From Candidatus Aminicenantes bacterium (GTDB taxonomy: Bacteria > Acidobacteriota > Aminicenantia > Aminicenantales > JAFGBC01): 64,000 nucleotides of DNA. Below the pieces are notes generated by a model, which worked only from the letters and a program-made list of their open reading frames with translations, was not told where the DNA came from and searched no databases. The number at the start of each line of letters is the position of its first letter. Within the stretch, counting starts at the first letter, position 1. The position numbers and the translations under genes are program-made. The stretch lies in the NCBI GenBank assembly GCA_963702005.1, contig OY969696.1, positions 1 through 64,000 of the forward strand, read 5' to 3'. This document shows, in pieces, positions 3,974 to 15,222 of the stretch.

Positions 3974-4000
3974 TTCGAACCCTCCTTCTCATCCGGCCCC

Positions 4001-4450
4001 TCACCAGTCTCGGGGCAGGGCCAATTGCCTATACTTGTTCCCTGCTTTAATTGCCAGAATTGCGGCGATCAGGTTCGCCCCAGCACATACCAACATCAAG
4101 ATCGCCTCTGCAGAAAATCCTTCATATTCATCCAGATAATAGACGGCACCGTTGAACACCATGAAGTCATGAAAAAGTACAAGGCCTGCAGCAAGATAGA
4201 GGAGTCCGGTGATAACTCCGCTGATAATCCTGCCACCGAGCTGGCTTAGAATGACACACACCAATAAGACAACCGCTGCCGCCAACAGGTATTTGAAAAA
4301 CATCCTCGAAGAATCAGCGGCGCCGTCTTTAATGGCCTCCGGATGCATATCAAGCCGGGGCACGAACAACACGGCCCATAAGGCGGTCACAACGATGACG
4401 ATCGCCGCTGCGATGTATACCGACCTTTGGCTGGGAATAGTCTTGGCCAT
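4001..4450 (-). CDS. hypothetical membrane protein (about 4 TM)
   Basis: 149-aa hydrophobic ORF with a GAGGAGG RBS. Confidence 0.75.
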   Translation of the reverse strand: MAKTIPSQRSVYIAAAIVIVVTALWAVLFVPRLDMHPEAIKDGAADSSRMFFKYLLAAAVVLLVCVILSQLGGRIISGVITGLLYLAAGLVLFHDFMVFNGAVYYLDEYEGFSAEAILMLVCAGANLIAAILAIKAGNKYRQLALPRDW

Positions 4451-4529
4451 CTCAGACCCCTCCTCTCTCGCTAATTAGCAGTATAAATCAGAATGGACAG
4501 GAAATTAAGAAAACAAATGGGGGGGAACA

Positions 4530-4574
4530 TGGCGTGTCTGAGAGGATTCGAACCTCCGACCTTTGGATCCGGAG
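4530..4574 (-). pseudogene. tRNA-Arg(CCG) 3' fragment (anticodon loop through CCA), att-like
   Basis: Matches 3560-3604 with one mismatch (gtgtctg vs gtgcctg). Confidence 0.8.
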
Positions 4575-5210
4575 GGCGATGGTCTTCCTTTCGATGAAAT
4601 TCGTTGACACGATGAAACCGTCGCCCTTTGGCTTCCGGGTGACGGCCAATTCCCCATCGGCGCCGAAACCGAGGACGCAGGCGTCGCCCGTCGCGTCCGC
4701 GAGCAGGTACTGCCCGGCGAACTTCCCGCTGTAGATCGTGCCCCAATCATAGGAGCGGGCCATGGCGATCGCTTCCTCGACCGTGGCGCATTTCCGCAAG
4801 ATGATCTTGTTGACGATCGCCTCCGAGGGCTGGATCCTTTCGGGGTATGTCTTGATGGGAATGTAGGGGAGCGCGTTCCCATCAAAGGCGAGCCCTTTTT
4901 CGTTGATCCCGCCTTGAGGTCCGAGGTCGTCGAAACCGACGCAGAGGACGCCGTATTTCCCGTCGCCGACCGGTTCGACCCAGACATAGGTCAGGGGGTT
5001 CCTCCAGTCCTCGTTATTGCCGAAGAACACGGATTCCTCCTTGGCCACGCTGAAGATCGTGCAGGAGCCGGGCATGGAGAGGTTACGGCGGAGGTCCCGA
5101 ACCTCAAACGGATAAGGTCTCGTCAGGAGGAAAGCAGAAGATCCGACGATCGCCACCCCCCCCAGGATCGACGCAAGCCAATGAGCGCGTGAACGCGGAT
5201 CGAAGAGCAT
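4575..5210 (-). pseudogene. C45/choloylglycine-hydrolase-type Ntn hydrolase, 3'-truncated
   Basis: SCTIF nucleophile motif, FGNNEDW, GGINEKGL, TVEEA, YLLADATG and STNF. Shortly after STNF the frame runs into the tRNA fragment. Confidence 0.7.
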
Positions 5211-5253
5211 ACCCTCCCTCCGCCAGGAGACCGGGATTTCAATGATCTCTATA

Positions 5254-5584
5254 AATTATAGGATTTTGCTTTTTCCGCGGCGTGTGGAATAGCCGCTCGG
5301 CACGATAATTCTCCGCTCCTAACCATGGTGGAAATATACCGCCGACCTCGCTGGGATGTCAACAACCTCTCACCACGGCACCGAAGAGCCTATTAAGGCG
5401 AAAAGCCTTCCCGCGCCGGCCAAATGACGACAGAGTTCCGCTCCCGAAGATAAGCCAATGATCATAAATAGTCCACGTTCTCTTCGGCCGCACTCATGGA
5501 GACGCTAACACGTTTCCATGAGTACGGGCCGAAGCGGCCGCCAGGAGCGCTGCCTGCTCGAAGACATAGGACGGCGGCGGCTTG
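5254..5584 (-). mobile_element. IS91/ISCR-like oriIS end remnant, copy 1 (331 bp)
   Basis: Direct repeat of 8482-8812 with 3 substitutions seen. The minus strand ends ...AAAGCAAAATCCTATA, similar to the IS91/ISCR oriIS terminus, and encodes a transposase-like tail KPPPSYVFEQ. Confidence 0.7.
5333..5362 (-). promoter_or_regulatory. sigma70-type outward-facing promoter in repeat copy 1
   Basis: TTGACA-18 bp-TATATT, conserved in all three copies. Confidence 0.6.
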
Positions 5585-6081
5585 GCAACGTCGAGACGGC
5601 GCCGGGCCTGGCGACGGCCCGCGAGCGGGGCCTCGAGGCGCTCTGGCTGAATCCCAAGTCGTATGCCACCCGCGAGGACTACGACACGGCCCTGTTGGCC
5701 GAGGTTCAAAAGCGGGACGTCGACCTCATCTGCCTGGCCGGCTACATGAAGATCGTGACCCCCCTCCTCTGCCGGGCCTTCGTCCACCGGATCATGAACA
5801 TCCACCCCGCCCTCCTCCCCGCCTTTCCCGGACTCCACGTCCAGCAGAAAGCCGTCGAGTGGGGCGTCCGCTATTCGGGGGCGACGGTCCACTTCGTTGC
5901 CGAAGAAGTCGACATGGGGCCGATCATCCTGCAGGCCGTCGTGCCCGTCCTCCAGGACGACGGCGAGGAGACCCTGATCGCGCGCATCCTCGAGCAGGAG
6001 CACAAGATCTACCCCGAGGCCGTCCGGCTCTTTTTCGAGGGACGGATCGAGGTCCGCGGCCGCCGCGTCTTCATTCGTTGA
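5585..6081 (+). pseudogene. purN: phosphoribosylglycinamide formyltransferase, 5'-truncated
   Basis: LAGYMKI, NIHPALLPAFPG, GATVHFV, DMGPII and EQEHKIYP are present. The N-terminal SGxGSN loop is missing and replaced by repeat-derived sequence. Confidence 0.8.
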
Positions 6082-8425
6082 TGATGGAAAAAACTCCGTC
6101 ACTCAAGTCATAGGGAATCCCGTCTGAGGCCTCCCTTATCCTAATCAGGCAGCGGGCCGACGGGGAATCGGGAACGACCCACGCATAAGAGCCCGCGTTC
6201 TTTGTTGAACGAATAATCGTCCTAAAGGCCGTTCCTCCGTCCGTTGAATAGGAAATCCACACGTTTCCGACTTTCCCGGCCGTTTTCCACTGTATGGTCT
6301 GCCGGGAGCCGACTTTCCAGCGCTCTCCTCCCCCGGGCGAAATCACCTGAATCAAAGGAGTCGGGGGATTTTCCATCAGTTTGGTCAAGAAGACATTGAA
6401 GGCCCCGCTGTTTTGACTCCTGAACGGATGTTTTATTGGAAAATCCGAAGAACATGTAGTCCCCGTTATATAGGCCGCCCCATTCCCGTCAATAACAATT
6501 CCATGCGCTTCGTCAGATAAGCTGCCTCCCAGATAGGTGGAAAATGCGAGCGTCTCTCCATCGGGCATGAACTTTGTAATAAACGCATTGAATCTCATGG
6601 CTTTGAGTTTGCCCTGGAAGGGATTCTTCACCGGAAAATTTGAGGACCTCGTGTATCCCGCAACATAAGCGCATCCCATATCGTCGACGGCGATGCCCCC
6701 GCCGTAATTTTCTTTCGTCCCGCCCAAATACGTGGAATAGACGAGGGCCGTTCCCGCCGGCGAAATTTTCGTTACAAAAACATCCCCATATTTGTATCTG
6801 CGCTTCTTCTGGAACGGGTTCTTGAGAGGAAAGTCCAAGGACGTTGTTTCTCCTGTCACGTAAGCGGCGCCGCTTCCGTCCACTGCGATAGACTTGCTCC
6901 ATTCCCACTCGCCGCTGCCGCCGAGGTAGCTGGAATAAGAGAGCGATTTTCCCGACGGTGACAGCTTGGTCACAAAGACATCAGACCGGCCCTTGAGCGT
7001 CTTTTGAAACGGGTTCTTTAGAGGAAAATCTGAAGAGAACGTGTTCCCCGTTACATAAGCGCTGCCGGCGCTATCTACGGCAATTTTAATGCCGCTTTCA
7101 CTATCGTCGCCCCCAAGATAAGTGGAATAAATGCGGGAATTTCCATCCGGAGCGAACTTGGCTACATAGGCATCACTTTTACCACGAGCGGTTTTTTGAA
7201 AAGGATTTTTTAGGCGGAAATCCGGAGAAGATGTACCCCCGGTGACATAAACGCCGCTCGTGTCAACGGCGATTCCATTCCCGCTATCAGTACTGCTTCC
7301 GCCGAGGTAAGTGGAAAAAACGAGATTATTGCCGGCGGAGGTTAGTTTGAAAAGAAAAGCGTCATTTTCTCCCCTGAGTGCTCGCTGCAATGGATTTTTC
7401 AACGGGAAATCCAGGGAATTCGTGCTGCCGATCACATAGGCGCATCCGTTTCCGTCCACGGCGATATCCCAGGCCATATCAGTACCCCCGTTTCCTCTTT
7501 CACTCCCGCCAATATAGGTCGAATAAACGAGGGAACTCCCTCCGGGCTTGAATTTGGTGATAAAAACATCTTCATATCCTTTATTCTCGGCCTGGATGGG
7601 ATTTTTCAGCGGGAAATCCAAGGACGTCGTTTCGCCGACCACATAGGCGGCCCCAGTGCCGTCAACGGCGACCCCACGACCGATGTCTTGACTTTCCCCT
7701 CCAAGGTAGGTGGAGTGCATCAGGACAACCGGATCTATAATCAGCTCGAGGCTTTTATCATAGTCAGCCGCATAAAAACCCCAGGTATTTTGGCCGATTT
7801 CCTTGAATTGGACTTCGACGGGTTTTTTCATCTGAAAACTCAAGGGTTTCTTGTGGACAAGCTCCCCGAATCGGGTTTCGACAAGGAGATTCCCTTCTTC
7901 ATCAATTTCCGTACTCTTGATATCCTTGTATTCAAATCGGATATCCTCGACATGAGCGCCGGGTTTTACCACCCAATCATATTCGATCTGCTTCTCGATG
8001 CCATAGACCTTGAGATCGATCCCGGGATAGAGGTTTTTATAAAGTATTGCGAGCGACGTCGAGATGTCTTTTTTCCATTTCGCGGGGTCATCGCCGATGA
8101 AATAGTTGGCAAGGTGTTCCGTCGGCTTCAGCGAAAGGACTTCCGGATTTTTATTGGCGTTCAGGAAGATCAGCTTGGAAACGTCTCTTTTTGAATTGGC
8201 TGTCGAATCAAACACCAGCCCGTTTTTCGTCATCCAAAGGGTGTAGCGCGATGTCTTCGCATAGAACAGAGCCCGTTCATCCGCCTGCCCCTTGTTAGGG
8301 ACGAAATACAGCGGGACTTTTCCATAATCCGGAGAGATCGTCGGCCTTTCCGCGGATCGGATATCGGGCGGCCTCTGGAGGGGGAGGAGCAGAAATAAGC
8401 CTAACGTATAAATTGATTTTTTCAT
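6071..8425 (-). CDS. secreted SBBP beta-propeller repeat protein with C-terminal Ig-like domain
   Basis: Signal-like MKKSIY start, FVPNKGQ, LIIDP, repeated YSTYLGG / IAVDxxGxAYVTGxTxSxDFP units, C-terminal SPGGGERWKVGS...GSYAWVVP. Confidence 0.88.
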   Translation of the reverse strand: MKKSIYTLGLFLLLPLQRPPDIRSAERPTISPDYGKVPLYFVPNKGQADERALFYAKTSRYTLWMTKNGLVFDSTANSKRDVSKLIFLNANKNPEVLSLKPTEHLANYFIGDDPAKWKKDISTSLAILYKNLYPGIDLKVYGIEKQIEYDWVVKPGAHVEDIRFEYKDIKSTEIDEEGNLLVETRFGELVHKKPLSFQMKKPVEVQFKEIGQNTWGFYAADYDKSLELIIDPVVLMHSTYLGGESQDIGRGVAVDGTGAAYVVGETTSLDFPLKNPIQAENKGYEDVFITKFKPGGSSLVYSTYIGGSERGNGGTDMAWDIAVDGNGCAYVIGSTNSLDFPLKNPLQRALRGENDAFLFKLTSAGNNLVFSTYLGGSSTDSGNGIAVDTSGVYVTGGTSSPDFRLKNPFQKTARGKSDAYVAKFAPDGNSRIYSTYLGGDDSESGIKIAVDSAGSAYVTGNTFSSDFPLKNPFQKTLKGRSDVFVTKLSPSGKSLSYSSYLGGSGEWEWSKSIAVDGSGAAYVTGETTSLDFPLKNPFQKKRRYKYGDVFVTKISPAGTALVYSTYLGGTKENYGGGIAVDDMGCAYVAGYTRSSNFPVKNPFQGKLKAMRFNAFITKFMPDGETLAFSTYLGGSLSDEAHGIVIDGNGAAYITGTTCSSDFPIKHPFRSQNSGAFNVFLTKLMENPPTPLIQVISPGGGERWKVGSRQTIQWKTAGKVGNVWISYSTDGGTAFRTIIRSTKNAGSYAWVVPDSPSARCLIRIREASDGIPYDLSDGVFSIINE

Positions 8426-8481
8426 CCCGCTTCCTTGTTGATGAGTCTCTGGAGCTTCGATCCGACCCCGACCCAAACCAG

Positions 8482-8902
8482 AATTATAGGATTTTGCTTT
8501 TTCCGCGGCGTGTGGAATAGCCGCTCGGCACGATAATTCTCCGCTCCAAACCATGGTGGAAATATACCGCCGACCTCGCTGGGATGTCAACAACCTCTCA
8601 CCACGGCACCGAAGAGCCTATTAAGGCAAAAAGCCTTCCCGCGCCGGCCAAATGACGACAGAGTTCCGCTCCCGAAGATAAGCCAATGATCATAAATAGT
8701 CCACGTTCTCTTCGGCCGCACTCATGGAGACGCTAACACGTTTCCATGAGTACAGGCCGAAGCGGCCGCCAGGAGCGCTGCCTGCTCGAAGACATAGGAC
8801 GGCGGCGGCTTGTCTGCGACAAACGTCAATCCGAGGTGATCGATGATCCTGTCCACCACGGAGTAATCAGTGATGAAGGCGACGACCTTCATCATCTCGC
8901 CT
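8482..8902 (-). mobile_element. IS91/ISCR-like remnant, copy 2: transposase C-terminal fragment plus oriIS end
   Basis: Minus strand encodes GEMMKVVAFITDYSVVDRIIDHLGLTFVADKPPP, resembling the C-terminus of IS91-family (Y2) transposases, followed by the 331-bp repeat. Confidence 0.7.
8561..8590 (-). promoter_or_regulatory. outward-facing promoter in repeat copy 2
   Basis: TTGACA-18 bp-TATATT pointing into the SBBP gene. Confidence 0.6.
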
Positions 8903-8991
8903 ATACGGAGCTAAACTATCCTCCTTTTTGCGCGGATTTCAATATCTTCGTCATGAACTTAATTATTTGCGTCCGAAGATGTCCGGTCTTA

Positions 8992-10093
8992 TTGACATAC
9001 GCATAAATAATGGAATCTTTCCTTGAATTGAGCTATACTATGAGCCATGAGACCTCCAGGAAGCCCCCAGCAACTCGAACAGCGTCGCCACCGGGCCATC
9101 CGATTGCTCCAAAAGGGATTGTCGATGGCCGAGGTGGCCAAAGAAGTCGGGGCCTCGATCAGCTCCGTCTTCCGATGGCAACACGCCTTCCACAAGAGCG
9201 GCTCCAAAGGACTGGAATGCGTTCCCGCGACTGGACGCCCTCCCAAACTCTCTCCCCGGCAGAAAAAGAAAGTCATCGGCCTACTCTTGCGCGGTCCCGT
9301 AGCGTTCGGTTATTCGACGGATCTTTGGACCACGCGGCGAGTCGCCGAAGTGATTGGCAGAGAATTTCGGATCGATTATCATCCCAATCATATCTGGCGT
9401 GTCCTAATGGGATTGGGATGGAGCTGCCAGAAGCCGGAACGTCGGGCGCGGGAACGCGACGAAGCGACCATCGAAGACTGGAGAAAAGTCCGCTGGCCGG
9501 CCATAAAAAAAAACTCTGGCACGTGGCGCCCATCTGGTCTTTCTGGATGAAAGCGGCTTTCTCCTGCTTCCGCATGTCGTTCGGACGTGGGCTCCCCGGG
9601 GCCAGACGCCCATCCTTAAACATTTTTATCGGAGAGATCGGGTGTCGGTGATTTCGGCGTTGACACTCTCCCCGAAGAAACGCCGGTGCGGACTGTTTTT
9701 CCGGGTTCATCCCCGGAACATCAAATCGGACGAGGTCGTCGCTTTTCTTCGAGGGTTGTTCCGTCATCTGCGTGGTCCGATCGTTCTGTTGTGGGATCGG
9801 GGCTTGATCCATAGAGGGAAAGCCGTGAAGACCCTTTTGGCCCATCGACAGAAAGTCCAAGAGGAATGGTTCCCGGCTTATGCTCCAGAGTTGAATCCCG
9901 CGGAATACGTTTGGGCGCAATCGAAAAGGAAATTGGCGAATGGATGTCCGCGCGGTACGGCAGAGCTGAATCTGATGGTGCACGCCAGCCTCACCGAGAT
10001 TGATTCGTCTCAAAAACTGCTCCGCTCTTGCCTTTTCGCCTCGACCCTTTTTAAACCGAAAGAACTATGTTCCATTATTTATGCGTAACTCAA
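8992..10093 (+). mobile_element. IS630-family insertion sequence
   Basis: Inverted repeats ttgacatacgcataaataatggaa / ttccattatttatgcgtaactcaa, flanked by TA at 8990-8991 and 10094-10095. Confidence 0.92.
9047..10088 (+). CDS. IS630 transposase in two frames joined at an A9 run (9505-9513)
   Basis: HTH ORF 9047-9550 (GRPPKL, LWTTRRV). The DDE part FLDESG, LLWDRG, YAPELNPAEYVW lies in the +1 frame. Confidence 0.85.
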
Positions 10094-11460
10094 TAATTGC
10101 GAACACTAATCCAATCGATATTGCCAGGGCTACTAATATGCAGTAATACCACTTATCAGGCATTAAGCTCGTCAAGCCGAAAAATATTGAAAAGAAGATG
10201 GCAACGATAACGCCGAACAAAGTCAGGGTGTTGGAATCCCACTGGCCCGATTGCGTCTTTTTGATGTCTTCCAAATCAGCTTTCCATTTCTCTTCAAATT
10301 TTGCTTCTTGAAGTTTCTCTTGCTGGCGCTCCCAGGCCTTTTCTTCGAAAAGATCCCAGTAATAAGAGATACTGCTATCCAGAACAGCCTCGTCCCCTTG
10401 TCCCCAAGAAAGAAGAATGTTTCTCAGCTCTTCGCTGATCTGTCTTGCCTCAATTCTTATCCTTTCCTCTTTCTCCTCGAAGTCTAGGCTTGCTCCGTGG
10501 ACTCTTCTGCTCTCATAGCTCGCTATTCTCTCATAATAGGCGGTGTTGAAAAGCTCGTCCTCCAGCAATTTTTGCTTCCCCGGATCAGCGGCATAATCGG
10601 TTTTGATCTTCTTAATTTCTCTGTGGAATATTTTTTCCATTGCGTACAGCTCAAGAAGCTCAATCCCGTAAACCGGTCTAAACTCATCTTCGTAATCTGG
10701 CTCTACAATTGTATAGGGCCCAAAAAAGCTATGATGTTGCTTGGCGATAATATCTATAATTGATTTGCCTTTTCCTTCGCTGTTCTGCGCGGAACTGATA
10801 ATGATTTCGATCTGACGAAATATATTAAGCTTGGAAAACACATTAAGAGCAATGTCTCTGGCAAAGTAATCCTCCGGCTCAGGCGGCTCATCCCAAGGCT
10901 TTCTCGTGATCTGCCACTTCGCCTGATACACCTTGCCTATAAAGTTGGTTATGCAACCCAGGCTGTAATCAAATACTCCCCACTTTCCTTCTTTCTTCAA
11001 AAAACCGGTCAGAATTCCTTCTATTCTTTGCCATTCGTAACTCGATTTGGAGTTTAACGGCTCAGCAATCTCTTTTAATAAACTGGCGCTTTTACCTCCC
11101 CACACGTCATGATAACGAGTGTCGAAAACTGCCGAGACGGCTCTCCTTCCGCTTCTATGCTCGATAAGTTTCAGTTGGGTCGATCGCTCGGTGATAGCCG
11201 GCAATCGCTCGTCAATTTTCACTTCTCTTGTGCTTTCTTTTAGAACGACTTCGTATCTTTCTAACACTCCCATCGGCTTCCGATAAGGCAGTAGCATGCA
11301 ATAATCAAAGCGCTTGCGCTCTTCTCCTTTACTTGCCATTGCGTTTCTCCCCGCATCCATTTTCATGCCTAAAAGAACATGATCGTCCGGGCCTTACAAT
11401 TCATATTTTATATACATTATGCTATAACTTCTAAAAGATTAATTCGTTTAAAAAGAGCTG

Positions 11461-11522
11461 ATGGACAAAAGCAAGCCCTCGGCGTCTTGATTCGGGTCTC
11501 AACCGAAGACCGGGCCAAGGAG
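11461..11522 (+). pseudogene. decayed N-terminus of a large serine recombinase
   Basis: atggacaaaagcaagccc-tc-ggc gtc ttg att cgg gtc tca acc gaa gac cgg gcc aag reads MDKSKP(V)GVLIRVSTEDRAK with one base missing. RVSTEDQ is the catalytic motif of this family. Confidence 0.5.
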
Positions 11523-11726
11523 TATAGTCTTTACAGGCACGAGAGACCAATAAAATCTATTGTCCAAATAATCTGAGTAGCGCATCTAATAAAATCATAA
11601 TTGGCCTTTTAATAGAACCAAGGACAGGAACACTCATTAATTTCAGATAATTCATCTAGACCCAAAACGGAAAGGTCTTTTTTGGAGTCCGTTGTCGAGA
11701 TAAAATAATGTGAGTAGTCAGTTCCT

Positions 11727-12857
11727 TTATTTTATTCCCAGTGACCTGCCCAACCAGCCAAGCATCAAATCCAATGGAAGACAAATAGTGACTCCCCAAT
11801 CTAATTTGTTTTTGGAGACCGTGGGCACTGTTTTGATGCTGCCTGTGACCTGGTCGCCCGGCTTAAATCCGCTTTGCAACTCCTGTGTTGCACCAAAACG
11901 GGCCAAGACGCTAATCGAAAAATATGTGAAATCGTAACCAAGCCCAAAATAGATCTTTTTAAATATCGCGCTAGATAGCTCGGTGGCCAGATTCAATTGA
12001 ATACGCCCACAAGAAAATATCTCGCCTTCAGGTTCAAAGCCGAAAGGGTATACCGTCCCGACAAAAATCATAGTTACGTTTCGTAACATATTTTCCATGA
12101 CGATGGCATTGACATCATTGGGACTGGCATACCCCAGGTTGTACTCCACCGACTTTTTGAAAGGAATGAATGTCCCCATATGCGAACCGAGGTAATAACG
12201 GGCCCTCGTTTTCAGGCTCTCAGCAAAAATGACTTTATCTAGTGAAGAGTCTTGATCAGCACCAGTAAACTCATGCGTGGGGTTAAATATATTTTTATTA
12301 TTGCTTTCAGATCCTTGAACAAAAGATGTGGAGCTTTGGCTCGATCTTTCTGATTTTAAAGCCTGCCCGTTTGTTGAGCGGGTAACCTTTATCTGATATG
12401 TCGTTCCACTTTCAGCGAGGATAAAAGACGACGTAAGCGTAGGCGGTGCGGCTATTGCTCTCTCAATTGGCACTGTTTTTCCAGTAAAAATTGGGACTAA
12501 TTCATAGCTGCTTTTTTGGGGGATGATATCTATTTTAAATTTATCTTTATATTTATTATCCAATATTATCGTTATCGTGACCTGAGTTCCAACACTCAAT
12601 GCTTTCGGAAACGCTTTTCCGCCCGGCAAGCCCACTATGAATGGATCTAGGGGAATATCATTTTTCGGCGAATCTTCTGATGGCGGATAAATCCGGCAGT
12701 TATTCCACAATACTTCTGCCAGTAGCCCATCACGATCCATCACAATTTTAAGGTCTTTAGGATAAGAAGAATTCGGAATCTGATTTTCGTTTCCTTTGGC
12801 TACAGCATACGAGAACAATCCAAAGAGTGCGAGCACTAAAAAGATTATCTTTTTCAC
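11727..12857 (-). CDS. AT-rich hypothetical exported protein, possible C-terminal beta-rich membrane domain
   Basis: GTG start with a GGGAGG RBS and signal peptide MKKIIFLVLALFGLFSYAVA. Confidence 0.75.
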   Translation of the reverse strand: MKKIIFLVLALFGLFSYAVAKGNENQIPNSSYPKDLKIVMDRDGLLAEVLWNNCRIYPPSEDSPKNDIPLDPFIVGLPGGKAFPKALSVGTQVTITIILDNKYKDKFKIDIIPQKSSYELVPIFTGKTVPIERAIAAPPTLTSSFILAESGTTYQIKVTRSTNGQALKSERSSQSSTSFVQGSESNNKNIFNPTHEFTGADQDSSLDKVIFAESLKTRARYYLGSHMGTFIPFKKSVEYNLGYASPNDVNAIVMENMLRNVTMIFVGTVYPFGFEPEGEIFSCGRIQLNLATELSSAIFKKIYFGLGYDFTYFSISVLARFGATQELQSGFKPGDQVTGSIKTVPTVSKNKLDWGVTICLPLDLMLGWLGRSLGIK

Positions 12858-12989
12858 GGTTCCTCCCCATATTTAGCTTTACATTTTAGTCGCGGAAGTT
12901 TAATTAAAATTGAAAACGCGGGAACAGCATTATATCGTCTGCATTCCTTCTTTTTATGCTCGATAAGGAAAGAATTTAGCCTAACAGAA

Positions 12990-13105
12990 AATTATAGGAT
13001 TTTGCTTTTTCCGCGGCGTGTGGAATAGCCGCTCGGCGCGATGATTCTCCCCTCCTCGCCATGATGGCAATATACTGCCGACTTCGCTGGGATGTCAACA
13101 ACCTC
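12990..13105 (-). mobile_element. IS91/ISCR-like oriIS end remnant, copy 3 (diverged, shorter)
   Basis: Same terminus aattataggattttgctttttccgcggcgtgtggaatagccgctcgg. The promoter TTGACA-18-TATATT is kept at 13069-13098. Confidence 0.7.
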
Positions 13106-13215
13106 CCTTTCCAAGGAGGCCCGATTGGAGGTTGCTGGGGTTCTCGGTTTCGCGAGATGTGCGATAATAGATGTATGAGCCGAGATATGAAATTGACCGT
13201 AGAAGGAGGAAGGGT

Positions 13216-15222
13216 GTGGCTCAATCAATAATGATGATGGCCGCCGTCTTGTGCGCGACCTCGTTGGCGCCTGGAGGGCAAGCGGTCCGGGGCGGGTCTG
13301 AGCCGGCAGAGAGAAATCCACGCCCGCCCGTCGTCTTTCGCGTCGCTGCGGACCGGCTCTTGAGCAGCAGGCCGATCAGCAAACTCATCTACGGCAACTT
13401 TATAGAGCTTGGCTTCGCCAGGCAGGTGGATGGCATGTGGGGCCAGATGCTCTATAACAGGAGTTTCGAGAACCTTCCACCCGCGAGCGCGATCGCGAGG
13501 CAGGAGCGGGGCCCGGCGAACGACGGCACGGCGGCCTGGTGGCACAGCGGGTACGAAGAGAAGCCTTGGTACACCTTCACTGCCGCGGGCAAGACCGACC
13601 TGCCGACCGACCGGCCGAATGACTATTGGGGATTCTATCACGGAAAAATAGCTGCCCGGGTTTCCGCTCAGAAGGAGGGTGCCTGGGGACTCGGTCAGGA
13701 CGGCCTAGGCCTCCAAGCGGGTGCCGGGTATTTCTTCCGCGGGTTTTTAGCGCATGACTATGGTGATCCCGGCAAGGGCCAGCACACGGTTACGGTCAGG
13801 CTGGTCGCTGAGAACGATCCGGGACGCGTCATTGACAGCATCGAAGCTTCCTTCGGCACGCAATTCACCGAATGCACGGGCACGCTCAGAAGCCGCGATT
13901 TCAACGGACGTGCCAGTTTTCAGCTGGTGGCGACGTCGCCCGGTGAGTTTGTAGCGGACGGTTTCGAGCTTACTCCTTCGGATGCCGTCCACGGCTGGCG
14001 CAGGGACATCATCGCCGCCATGAAGCGCGTCCGTCCCGCCATGCTTCGTTTTCCCGGCGGTTGCTTTGCGAGTTACTATAACTGGAAGGACGGCATCGGA
14101 CCGCGCGATGACCGCATGCCGCGGCAGAGCGAGTTCTGGGGCGGCCTTGAATACAACGACGTCGGGACGGACGAGTACCTTGACCTTTGTCAGGAGGTCG
14201 GCGCAGAGCCGTTCCTTGTCGTCAATGTCATGACGGGAACACCCCTCCTGGCGGCCGAATGGGTCGAATACTGTAACGGCTCCCGCGAAACGAAGATGGG
14301 CGGCCTCCGGGCTTGGAACGGGCACGAAAGAGCAAGGAAAGTGACGTACTGGGAGCTGGACAATGAGCCTGACCGTAAATACGGTCCGGAACAGTATGCC
14401 CGCAGGGTGGCGGCATTTGCGCGAGCGATGAGGGCGGTGGATCCATCAATTAAACTGGCGATCGAAGGCTACGACAGCTACGCCGATCAATGGAACACCA
14501 TCTTCGACATCTGCGGGCAGGAAATCGATTTCGTGTCGGACCGGTACTACGCGGAGCGGGACTTCGCGCGGGATGTTCCGATCCTCGAGGCTTACCGGAA
14601 GAAGACCGGCCGGAGGATCGGATTGTGCAATACCGAGTGGATCGCACCGTTCGAGGTCCCCTCCGGCGAGGCCGAAGCCGCCGCGATCCGGGACCGATCC
14701 AGGCTGCAGCGCTGGTCCTATGCGTTGAACGCCGCGACGGTCCTTCAGGGGTTCTGGCGGAATGCAGACTGGATGGACTTCGCCAACTTCAACAACCTGG
14801 TCAACACCTGGGGACAGAATGTCATCGAGTCCGCCAAGACCGGGGCATGGTTGTCATGCGCCGGCCGATTGTTCGAGTTCTTCACGGACTCCAGGGCTTC
14901 GTGGCCCGTGGAAATCACGCCCGCCGAACAGGGCGGCAAGATCCACGCTGCCGCGGCGCTCTCCGGATCTAAACAAGAGCTCGTCATCAACATTGTGAAC
15001 ATGGGTGAAGCGGCGAGTTTGGATGTTGCCTTCGGCGGCGGATCGCCCGGTTGGAGGGCAAACTCAGCGCGGGGTCTCGCTGCTCCGTCCCTTATTTCGC
15101 GCAACTCCGAGTCCGACCGGAATGTTGTGACGCCCGTTCAGCCGGTGACTGAGATGCGGGGAGGTCACCTCATTATTCAGGTCCGGGCGTACTCAATCTC
15201 CGAAGTCGTTCTTTCAAAATAG
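13216..15222 (+). CDS. GH51-like alpha-L-arabinofuranosidase, secreted
   Basis: IYGNFIE, LRFPGGCFAS, VGTDEY, WELDNE (acid/base), NTEW (nucleophile). GTG start after AGGAGG. Confidence 0.8.
   Translation: MAQSIMMMAAVLCATSLAPGGQAVRGGSEPAERNPRPPVVFRVAADRLLSSRPISKLIYGNFIELGFARQVDGMWGQMLYNRSFENLPPASAIARQERGPANDGTAAWWHSGYEEKPWYTFTAAGKTDLPTDRPNDYWGFYHGKIAARVSAQKEGAWGLGQDGLGLQAGAGYFFRGFLAHDYGDPGKGQHTVTVRLVAENDPGRVIDSIEASFGTQFTECTGTLRSRDFNGRASFQLVATSPGEFVADGFELTPSDAVHGWRRDIIAAMKRVRPAMLRFPGGCFASYYNWKDGIGPRDDRMPRQSEFWGGLEYNDVGTDEYLDLCQEVGAEPFLVVNVMTGTPLLAAEWVEYCNGSRETKMGGLRAWNGHERARKVTYWELDNEPDRKYGPEQYARRVAAFARAMRAVDPSIKLAIEGYDSYADQWNTIFDICGQEIDFVSDRYYAERDFARDVPILEAYRKKTGRRIGLCNTEWIAPFEVPSGEAEAAAIRDRSRLQRWSYALNAATVLQGFWRNADWMDFANFNNLVNTWGQNVIESAKTGAWLSCAGRLFEFFTDSRASWPVEITPAEQGGKIHAAAALSGSKQELVINIVNMGEAASLDVAFGGGSPGWRANSARGLAAPSLISRNSESDRNVVTPVQPVTEMRGGHLIIQVRAYSISEVVLSK

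Follow-up and report, generated by a model that had tools for sequence, protein, structure and literature searches.

Three truncated element ends in the window

The DNA analyzed here (the window) is the first 64,000 nt of contig OY969696.1, from a Candidatus Aminicenantes bacterium (assembly GCA_963702005.1), and our subject is a repeat that occurs in it three times, each time upstream of a gene. Sequence comparison identifies each repeat as the truncated right-hand (oriIS-side) end of an insertion sequence (IS) of the rolling-circle IS91 family. The genome itself (G000) is a single contig of 4.31 Mb, and 61 related genomes (G001, G056, etc.) were searched.

A repeat search of the window found 117 nt shared by three direct copies at 5253-5369, 8481-8597 (98% identity), and 12989-13105 (92%), with copies 1 and 2 being 99% identical across 300 nt. 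As a BLAST query against its own genome, 8482-8900 matched 5254-5584 (99%) and 12990-13105 (91%). On the minus strand, all three copies reach ...GCAAAATCCTATAATT and diverge at the next base (T, C, and T, respectively). The repeat search, BLAST, and direct reading thus agree with a preliminary description of this DNA, which had reported three minus-strand copies with one sharp common terminus. Its boundaries for copies 1 and 3 were also correct; however, copy 2, which it had ended at 8812, extends from 8482 to 8900 because 8813-8900 still codes for the tail of a transposase.

All parts of the three copies lie on the minus strand. Copy 2 consists of a terminal module at the oriIS-side end (8482-8597), a spacer between the transposase stop and the module together with decayed last codons (8598-8721, including a palindromic insert at 8713-8768), and a remnant of the C-terminal tail of an IS91-family transposase (MMKVVAFITDYSVVDRIIDHLGLTFVADKPPP...; 8722-8900). 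Its module carries a −35 hexamer TTGACA at 8590-8585 and a −10 hexamer TATATT at 8566-8561, followed by ca. 75 nt to the terminus ...GCAAAATCCTATAATT at 8482. Copy 1 has a module at 5254-5369 (−35, 5362-5357; −10, 5338-5333) and a spacer with a shorter transposase-tail remnant at 5370-5584, where it is cut. Copy 3 is a module only (12990-13105; −35, 13098-13093; −10, 13074-13069), 91-92% identical to copies 1 and 2, without spacer or transposase remnant. The last ca. 45 transposase codons are retained in copy 2, fewer in copy 1, and none in copy 3. The earlier statement that the transposase side is deleted to differing extents was borne out for the window, and the deletion is graded across the 64 copies described below.

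Co-oriented open reading frames (ORFs) start at 5210, 8425, and 12857, which is 43, 56, and 132 nt past the termini of copies 1, 2, and 3, respectively. The gene after copy 1 (4488-5210, minus strand) encodes a 240-aa AAT/peptidase C45-like protein according to Pfam. The gene after copy 2 (6071-8425, minus strand) encodes a 784-aa secreted beta-propeller protein with DUF7948 and SBBP families, and that after copy 3 (11727-12857, minus strand) encodes a 376-aa protein with a signal-peptide-like N-terminus (by eye) and no Pfam family. No BLASTP match at E ≤ 1e-5 was found among the three proteins. ORF starts, BLASTP, and Pfam are consistent with the three unrelated co-oriented genes previously placed at 44, 57, and 133 bp.

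Some further features of the copies were noted. A palindromic insert of ca. 56 nt (core ACTCATGGAGACGCTAACACGTTTCCATGAGT) at 8713-8768 and 5485-5540 disrupts the transposase-tail frame in copies 2 and 1, and it occurs at nine further places in the genome with 78-88% identity (e.g., 990181-990236, 1028648-1028703, and 974996-975042). At 13097-13134, the left edge of copy 3 could, judged by eye, pair with its upstream flank (CAACCTCC ... GGAGGTTG, 8 bp), and a smaller CCTCC/GGAGG hairpin is nested within this pairing (also by eye). A 15-codon leader ORF (GTG...TAA) seen in the window copies was dropped as a candidate, as inspection by eye found it not conserved in other copies.

The repeat belongs to an IS91-family element

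The minus-strand peptide of 8722-8900 alone gave no Pfam match; this tail lies beyond the span of the models. It matched the C-terminus of the only Y2_Tnp ORF of its own genome, a truncated 198-aa frame at 4152486-4153082, with 67% identity (31 of 46 residues; E 6e-18). It is also 74% identical to residues 373-414 of a 427-aa ORF of the relative G056. This full-length ORF and the 428-aa ORF of G017 both contain Zn_Tnp_IS91 (PF14319) and Y2_Tnp (PF04986) and scored 201.5 and 207.9 bits, respectively, with the NCBIfam model NF033538 "IS91 family transposase" (cut-off 125). The peptide is therefore IS91-related, as had been proposed, through its 67% identity over 46 aa to the Y2_Tnp ORF and its 74% identity to a relative passing NF033538. 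The full-length relatives did not reach the NCBIfam model for ISCR clade Ia (148.6 and 141 bits; cut-off 925). Y2_Tnp matches were found in 44 of the 61 related genomes, many of them being the C-terminal part of the domain alone. A lone transposase-tail fragment of 97 nt, 90% identical to copy 2 and without a module, was observed at G000:C1:347093-347189, flanked by a small ORF and an htpX-like gene.

In the relatives, an intact element consists of a short left end, a 427-428-aa Zn-finger/HUH-Y2 transposase, a spacer of ca. 100 nt, and a terminal module of ca. 110 nt. All eight full-length elements read, from seven genomes, have TTGAC(A)-17/18-TAnnnT ca. 100 nt after the stop codon and then ca. 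75 nt. Their termini are of the type GAAAAAGCAAATTCTTAT(C), alike in kind in 8/8. According to the preliminary description, the terminus of the IS91-like element ISCR1 contains TTCCTATA. On the left side, the limit of which is provisional, six full-length elements share only ca. 20-40 nt upstream of the transposase, namely GGnnCGTTTCTTGA ca. 20 nt before the start codon and an imperfect start-codon palindrome.

Two G056 copies (a and b) are 90% identical as far as exactly the first base of the module. Such a break would fit a module lying outside the element, either as the preferred target of the IS91-like element or as a cis-regulatory RNA or regulon operator, and several of the genes linked to modules are paralogous secreted beta-propeller proteins. 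However, in copy a an rve-family IS parts an intact 427-aa IS91 transposase from its own module, and the module resumes behind the inserted IS. This rve-family (IS481/IS3-like) IS, at G056:C1 ~2823440-2824640, has a 302-aa transposase and lies directly before the TTGAC of the IS91 module. Since all eight full-length elements end in the module and the G056 exception is explained by the IS, the module is part of the element and was rejected as a target site. In two pairs of elements with similar transposase tails, the module interiors also look alike by eye. An RNA is not favored either, as Rfam gave no matches at E ≤ 1 across 4000-14000 and RNAalifold predicted no pairs from 24 copies. Candidate hairpins (in the −35/−10 spacer, and GCGGC-N10-GCCGC) had 69.0% of cells paired compared with 67.2% in shuffles (50 of 500 reached the value) and 32-48% when slid. 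An operator is at odds with linked genes spanning at least 12 unrelated Pfam architectures. We consider a module outside the element very improbable. The 8/8 full-length elements agree with the earlier view that the repeats represent the element end downstream of the transposase gene, i.e., the oriIS side.

The terminus marks a genuine junction, as seen at 1.20 Mb of G000, where a transposase tail, spacer, and module lie directly before a diacylglycerol-kinase gene. The only close homologue of this gene among 25 relatives searched is in G018 (85% aa identity). DNA homology to G018 starts 1 nt past the module, and the gene upstream differs in G018. The flank past the terminus is AATT in all three window copies; elsewhere it is CCCC, CCCT, CCTT, ACAT, GATG, TCGT, and others. 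An ATT(T/C) target preference, as first suggested, thus reflects only the three closely related window copies and does not hold for the others. A CTTR-like word, seen in three elements, may still adjoin the true end, as the last base of the element is placed only approximately.

A promoter-like site is the best-conserved part of the module

A promoter scan of 4400-13400 gave 12 sites, compared with 7.1 ± 2.8 in shuffled sequences. The only 11/12 matches in these 9 kb were TTGACA-18-TATATT at 5362-5333, 8590-8561, and 13098-13069, all on the minus strand. The site is thus preserved even in the diverged third copy, as had been noted previously.

Among 70 distinct copies, averaging ca. 1 bit per column, the columns with the highest information include five of the six −35 positions (TTGAC, 61-64 of 70, the rest being gaps) and −10 positions 1, 2, and 6. 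Further such columns are a T ca. 8 nt past the −10, an ATTC, and the terminal GAAAAAG. The hexamers are therefore the best-conserved part of the module, in agreement with the preliminary description. In solo copies, i.e., those with no spacer or tail match upstream, TTGAC is present in 34/37 and TA...T in 35/37, while the terminal AAAAAG motif is present in 23/37 compared with 22/27 copies having a spacer or tail. These counts modestly suggest preferential retention of the hexamers in the solo copies, which were themselves found by similarity. The module is predicted to contain a near-consensus sigma-70-type promoter (TTGACA, 17-18 nt, TAnnnT) facing outward, from which transcription would proceed.

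Transposase-less ends are dispersed in the genome and its relatives

Searched with a profile of the 116-nt module, G000 yielded 17 copies at E ≤ 8e-18 and, at the looser cut-off of E < 0.01, 25. In a wider search of the 61 related genomes with a sequence-only covariance model built from 24 copies, 36 genomes had module matches, ca. 420 in total. The counts reach 54 in G001 and are, for example, 40 in G044, 31 in G056, 28 in G024, 27 in G019, 26 in G000, and 22 in G005. Modules outnumber transposase matches several-fold and are present in G005, G013, and G060 despite zero Y2_Tnp matches, G005 having 22 modules and no Y2_Tnp hit.

A spacer or tail was kept in 27 of the 64 copies with enough upstream sequence, and nothing was detectable in the other 37. 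Among the 27, the kept sequence starts at profile positions 2-7 in 14 and at 30-108 in the remaining 13, indicating that truncation from the transposase side is graded. Many copies, including copy 3, end within ca. 20 nt upstream of the −35. These transposase-less ends stand out by their number and orientation.

A separate repeat of ca. 110 nt was observed at G000:C1:687593-687705 and 4082180-4082285, and G001 has more than 40 copies of it. Both G000 copies match the same sites in G001 but on opposite strands; thus, either the copies are oppositely oriented or the repeat is palindromic. This second repeat is probably a small non-autonomous element.

The ends point toward gene starts

For 16 of the 17 strong G000 copies, a co-oriented ORF of at least 240 aa starts no more than 160 nt away; for the 17th, the distance is 264 nt. 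All of these 16 genes except that for the 376-aa window protein have Pfam families, representing at least 12 unrelated architectures. They include peptidases C45, M20, and M28, glycosyltransferases, diacylglycerol kinase, an HD-type response regulator, CARDB/BNR, and beta-propeller proteins. The BLAST of the terminal repeat across the genome and the tabulation of flanks and orientation, which the preliminary description had proposed, gave the same picture: the copies are co-oriented with the next gene.

Because an ORF downstream is also found for 49% of random positions, we used the orientation of flanking genes instead, counting 64 copies from 31 genomes with crude longest-ORF gene calls. A co-oriented gene started within 300 nt in 34/39 solo (transposase-less) copies and 18/25 linked copies. 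In tandem gene contexts, solo copies pointed toward a gene start in 22 cases and toward a gene end in none. At least one "opposite" call is an artefact: Pfam supports the GT4 gene at 686 kb, which is co-oriented. The claim of genome-wide co-orientation with the next gene therefore stood, at 16/17 in the own genome and 22:0 in tandem contexts. Replication-strand bias was rejected as its cause, with eight leading and nine lagging copies by GC skew.

These counts bear on whether the copies might be inert debris of an old IS burst, their promoter-like words idle and their positions merely tolerated insertion sites. The ragged truncation on the transposase side (27/64 with spacer or tail, starting at 2-7 in 14 and 30-108 in 13) would fit debris, as would the mosaic character of the window region, which contains another IS and a gene fragment. 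Many linked genes are also accessory: just 3 of 27 G001 modules share their downstream flank with the sister genome. However, if intergenic insertions were merely tolerated, both orientations should occur in tandem contexts, where the solo copies are 22:0. Under neutral decay, TTGAC and TA...T should not be the best-kept positions in 70 copies averaging ca. 1 bit per column, and modules persist in genomes without a detectable transposase. Inert debris is therefore an unlikely explanation.

Cargo, insertions, and arrays

Most module-linked genes have no DNA-level counterpart in sister genomes. Relative to G000, G001 has a 4.8-kb insertion (between G000 3352213 and 3352195) consisting of a transposase fragment (aa 48-64), a module, four co-oriented genes, and a second fragment (aa 87-110). 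A 7.3-kb insertion of G001 (near G000 3244712) contains a module, cargo, transposase fragments, another module, and a DUF7948 gene. The last module and gene of this insertion are 90.5% identical to another G000 locus, 785621-783404, with homology starting from the left edge of the module. When 27 G001 modules were compared with G000, the upstream flank was conserved for ca. 12 and the downstream flank for 3; modules thus tend toward the upstream border of strain-specific genes.

The window forms an array in the order module, two genes, remnant plus module, gene plus purN fragment, remnant plus module, and gene. Transposase-tail fragments were also observed every few kb at G023:C1:609219-616471, G028:C9:27282-53029, G056:C1:2824733-2827988, and G057:C1:48374-58178, and clustered in G047. 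Such recurrence suggests arrays of truncated elements with genes between them. The window array, the clustered fragments, the G001 insertions, and the flank asymmetry led us to a tentative and rather doubtful reading, in which the IS91-type element acts as a promoter-and-cargo shuffling system. Units of cargo and truncated element would land beside resident origin ends, each outward promoter driving the next unit, and the ends would be kept by selection after loss of the transposase. The arrays would be comparable to an integron Pc with its cassettes, but built by a rolling-circle enzyme.

The match between the 785-kb module with its DUF7948 gene and a different G001 locus, beginning at the left edge of the module, also touches on the earlier proposal that the module is a non-autonomous rolling-circle mini-element with two ends of its own, mobilized by transposase in trans. 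Modules are several-fold more numerous than transposase genes, and copy 3 and many others stop within ca. 20 nt upstream of the −35, which would agree with a defined unit. There is also a precedent in a mini-IS91 of 89 + 82 bp that transposes with TnpA in trans (PMC13181058). However, only 1 of 65 modules has the left-end motif of full elements, GTTTC[TC]TGA (terIS-like), in the 260 nt upstream of it, and the left boundaries are ragged in 13 copies. We sought empty sites of solo modules in G001 and G002 and found no case in which a bare module had inserted cleanly. TTGAC is preceded by A in 32, G in 14, and C in 13 copies, so that no CTTG-type termination word is shared. CTTG at the left edge as a word for premature termination was accordingly rejected, C preceding TTGAC in only 13/59 copies. 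A defined mini-element is improbable, and this part of the earlier description was not upheld, given the single terIS-like motif among 65 modules and the ragged left truncations.

Adjoining DNA in the window

A 3′ fragment of purN on the plus strand (5585-6081) abuts the truncated copy 1. It has 87.9% nucleotide identity to the intact purN of G000 (3693604-3694091) and was apparently captured from a related organism. Beyond copy 2, on its transposase side, lies an IS630-family element on the plus strand (8980-10105) with 36-nt inverted repeats, whose transposase is in two frames. The HTH part was observed at 9047-9550 and the DDE_3 part at 9642-10088; a frameshift in an A-run near 9505 has probably split the transposase.

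Discussion

Our preferred explanation, which we hold at a probability of roughly 0.7, is that the repeats are truncated oriIS-side ends of IS91-family elements whose outward promoter drives the next gene. The module promoter would fire outward, with ca. 75 nt of module transcribed up to the element terminus ...GAAAAAGCAAAttCCTAT, and each window copy would most likely be the promoter source for the gene 43-132 nt past its terminus. Transposase-less ends would accumulate and persist in this lineage mainly where they are aimed at a gene start, and selection is presumably the reason for their retention. The element itself is a new, uncharacterized IS91-family member with a predicted ISCR1-like outward promoter. 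From the interpretation in the preliminary description, the IS91 end, the promoter conservation, and the co-orientation were retained, while the mini-element and the ATT(T/C) preference were not.

Several points weigh against this explanation. The copies are not independent, as they include two paralogue trios, G000/G001 orthologues, and the near-identical window copies 1 and 2. Their overall similarity was selected for because the search profile was built from the same sequences, and the orientation counts depend on the crude gene calls mentioned above. The IS91 hallmark tetranucleotide CTTG/GTTC beside oriIS is not evident in the flanks. A search of RNA runs found none containing the window, and three metatranscriptome runs held almost none of its sequence words. 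The hexamers are equally conserved in transposase-linked and solo copies, which may mean that it is the element and not the host that benefits from their conservation.

The last point leads to a possible but less likely reading, compatible with outward expression of the next gene: the promoter serves mainly the element and, after its ends are joined in a circle or tandem, reads across the junction into the transposase gene, with activation of host genes as a by-product. In six full-length elements, no shared promoter was visible upstream of the transposase beyond GGnnCGTTTCTTGA and the start-codon palindrome. With so little conserved upstream sequence, a promoter acting across joined ends could express the transposase. 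The hexamers occur in 8/8 full-length elements. IS91 circles with joined oriIS and terIS have been described (PMC13181058), and junction promoters are known from IS911 (PMC9330008). On the other hand, a lineage-specific internal promoter is possible, as some elements have TTGAC-like words 130-150 nt upstream. As far as PMC13181058 describes, insertion competence in IS91 is limited to the single-stranded circle, and, according to PMC13393415, the terIS region of known ISCRs contains a promoter of their own, Prcr. An element-serving promoter also leaves the 22:0 co-orientation of solo copies unexplained.

Expression of neighboring genes from an element end, which is central to our preferred explanation, has a precedent in ISCR1, as the preliminary description had pointed out. 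ISCR1 has two outward promoters in a 232-bp oriIS region that raised downstream expression 13-15-fold, and its outward promoters were needed for blaCTX-M-9 resistance (PMC6218425). A review likewise states that ISCR-like elements contain complete outward promoters (PMC9330008). Our element resembles ISCR1, whose two promoters are named PCR1-1 and PCR1-2 (POUT) in PMC6218425, in its IS91-like transposase and in an outward promoter, here a predicted one, between the transposase stop and the oriIS terminus. In both, variable unrelated genes abut the oriIS end and truncated copies keeping this end are common. Unlike ISCR1, the transposase here falls below the ISCR clade Ia model, there is no integron context, and the host belongs to an environmental uncultivated lineage. 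We found a single near-consensus promoter (11/12), predicted from sequence, whereas the two ISCR1 promoters are further from consensus according to PMC6218425. Hundreds of transposase-less ends, spread over 36/61 genomes, also set this element apart from ISCR1.

With IS91, IS801, and IS1294, as described in PMC13181058, it shares a Zn-finger and HUH-Y2 transposase and a pair of dissimilar ends, of which the origin end follows the transposase gene. The functional ends are also comparable in length: the last 82 bp of IS91 oriIS suffice for transposition (PMC13181058), and the module here is ca. 110 nt. Foreign neighboring DNA (here apparently the purN fragment) is a further feature in common with the family, and the candidate subterminal palindromes, which pair little more often than shuffles, may be another. 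In contrast to IS91, we found no orf121, no evident CTTG/GTTC at the origin end, and a very short conserved left end. The strong outward promoter predicted here has no counterpart in what PMC13181058 describes for IS91.

Mobile promoters were described as a class in 2012 (Nijveen et al., PMC3575422). The modules resemble those putative mobile promoters in being highly similar promoter regions before unrelated genes across taxa, but differ in that their vehicle is identified, namely the end of an IS91-family element. In our literature search, we found no paper joining Aminicenantes and IS91, and none on truncated oriIS ends as promoters besides PMC6218425.

ISCR1 is known from clinical Gammaproteobacteria, and these findings carry its picture over to IS91 elements from the environment. 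Within the origin end, conservation is highest at the predicted promoter, which raises the question of whether this promoter serves the element, the host, or both. Genome annotation should not treat the module repeats as RNA genes or as operators of a regulon. Provided that the modules are active, the unit of ca. 110 nt could predict transcription starts at hundreds of loci in 36 of 61 genomes. Part of the accessory genes of this lineage, including those for secreted beta-propeller proteins, peptidases, glycosyltransferases, and a c-di-GMP-type regulator, would then be transcribed from promoters delivered by a transposon.

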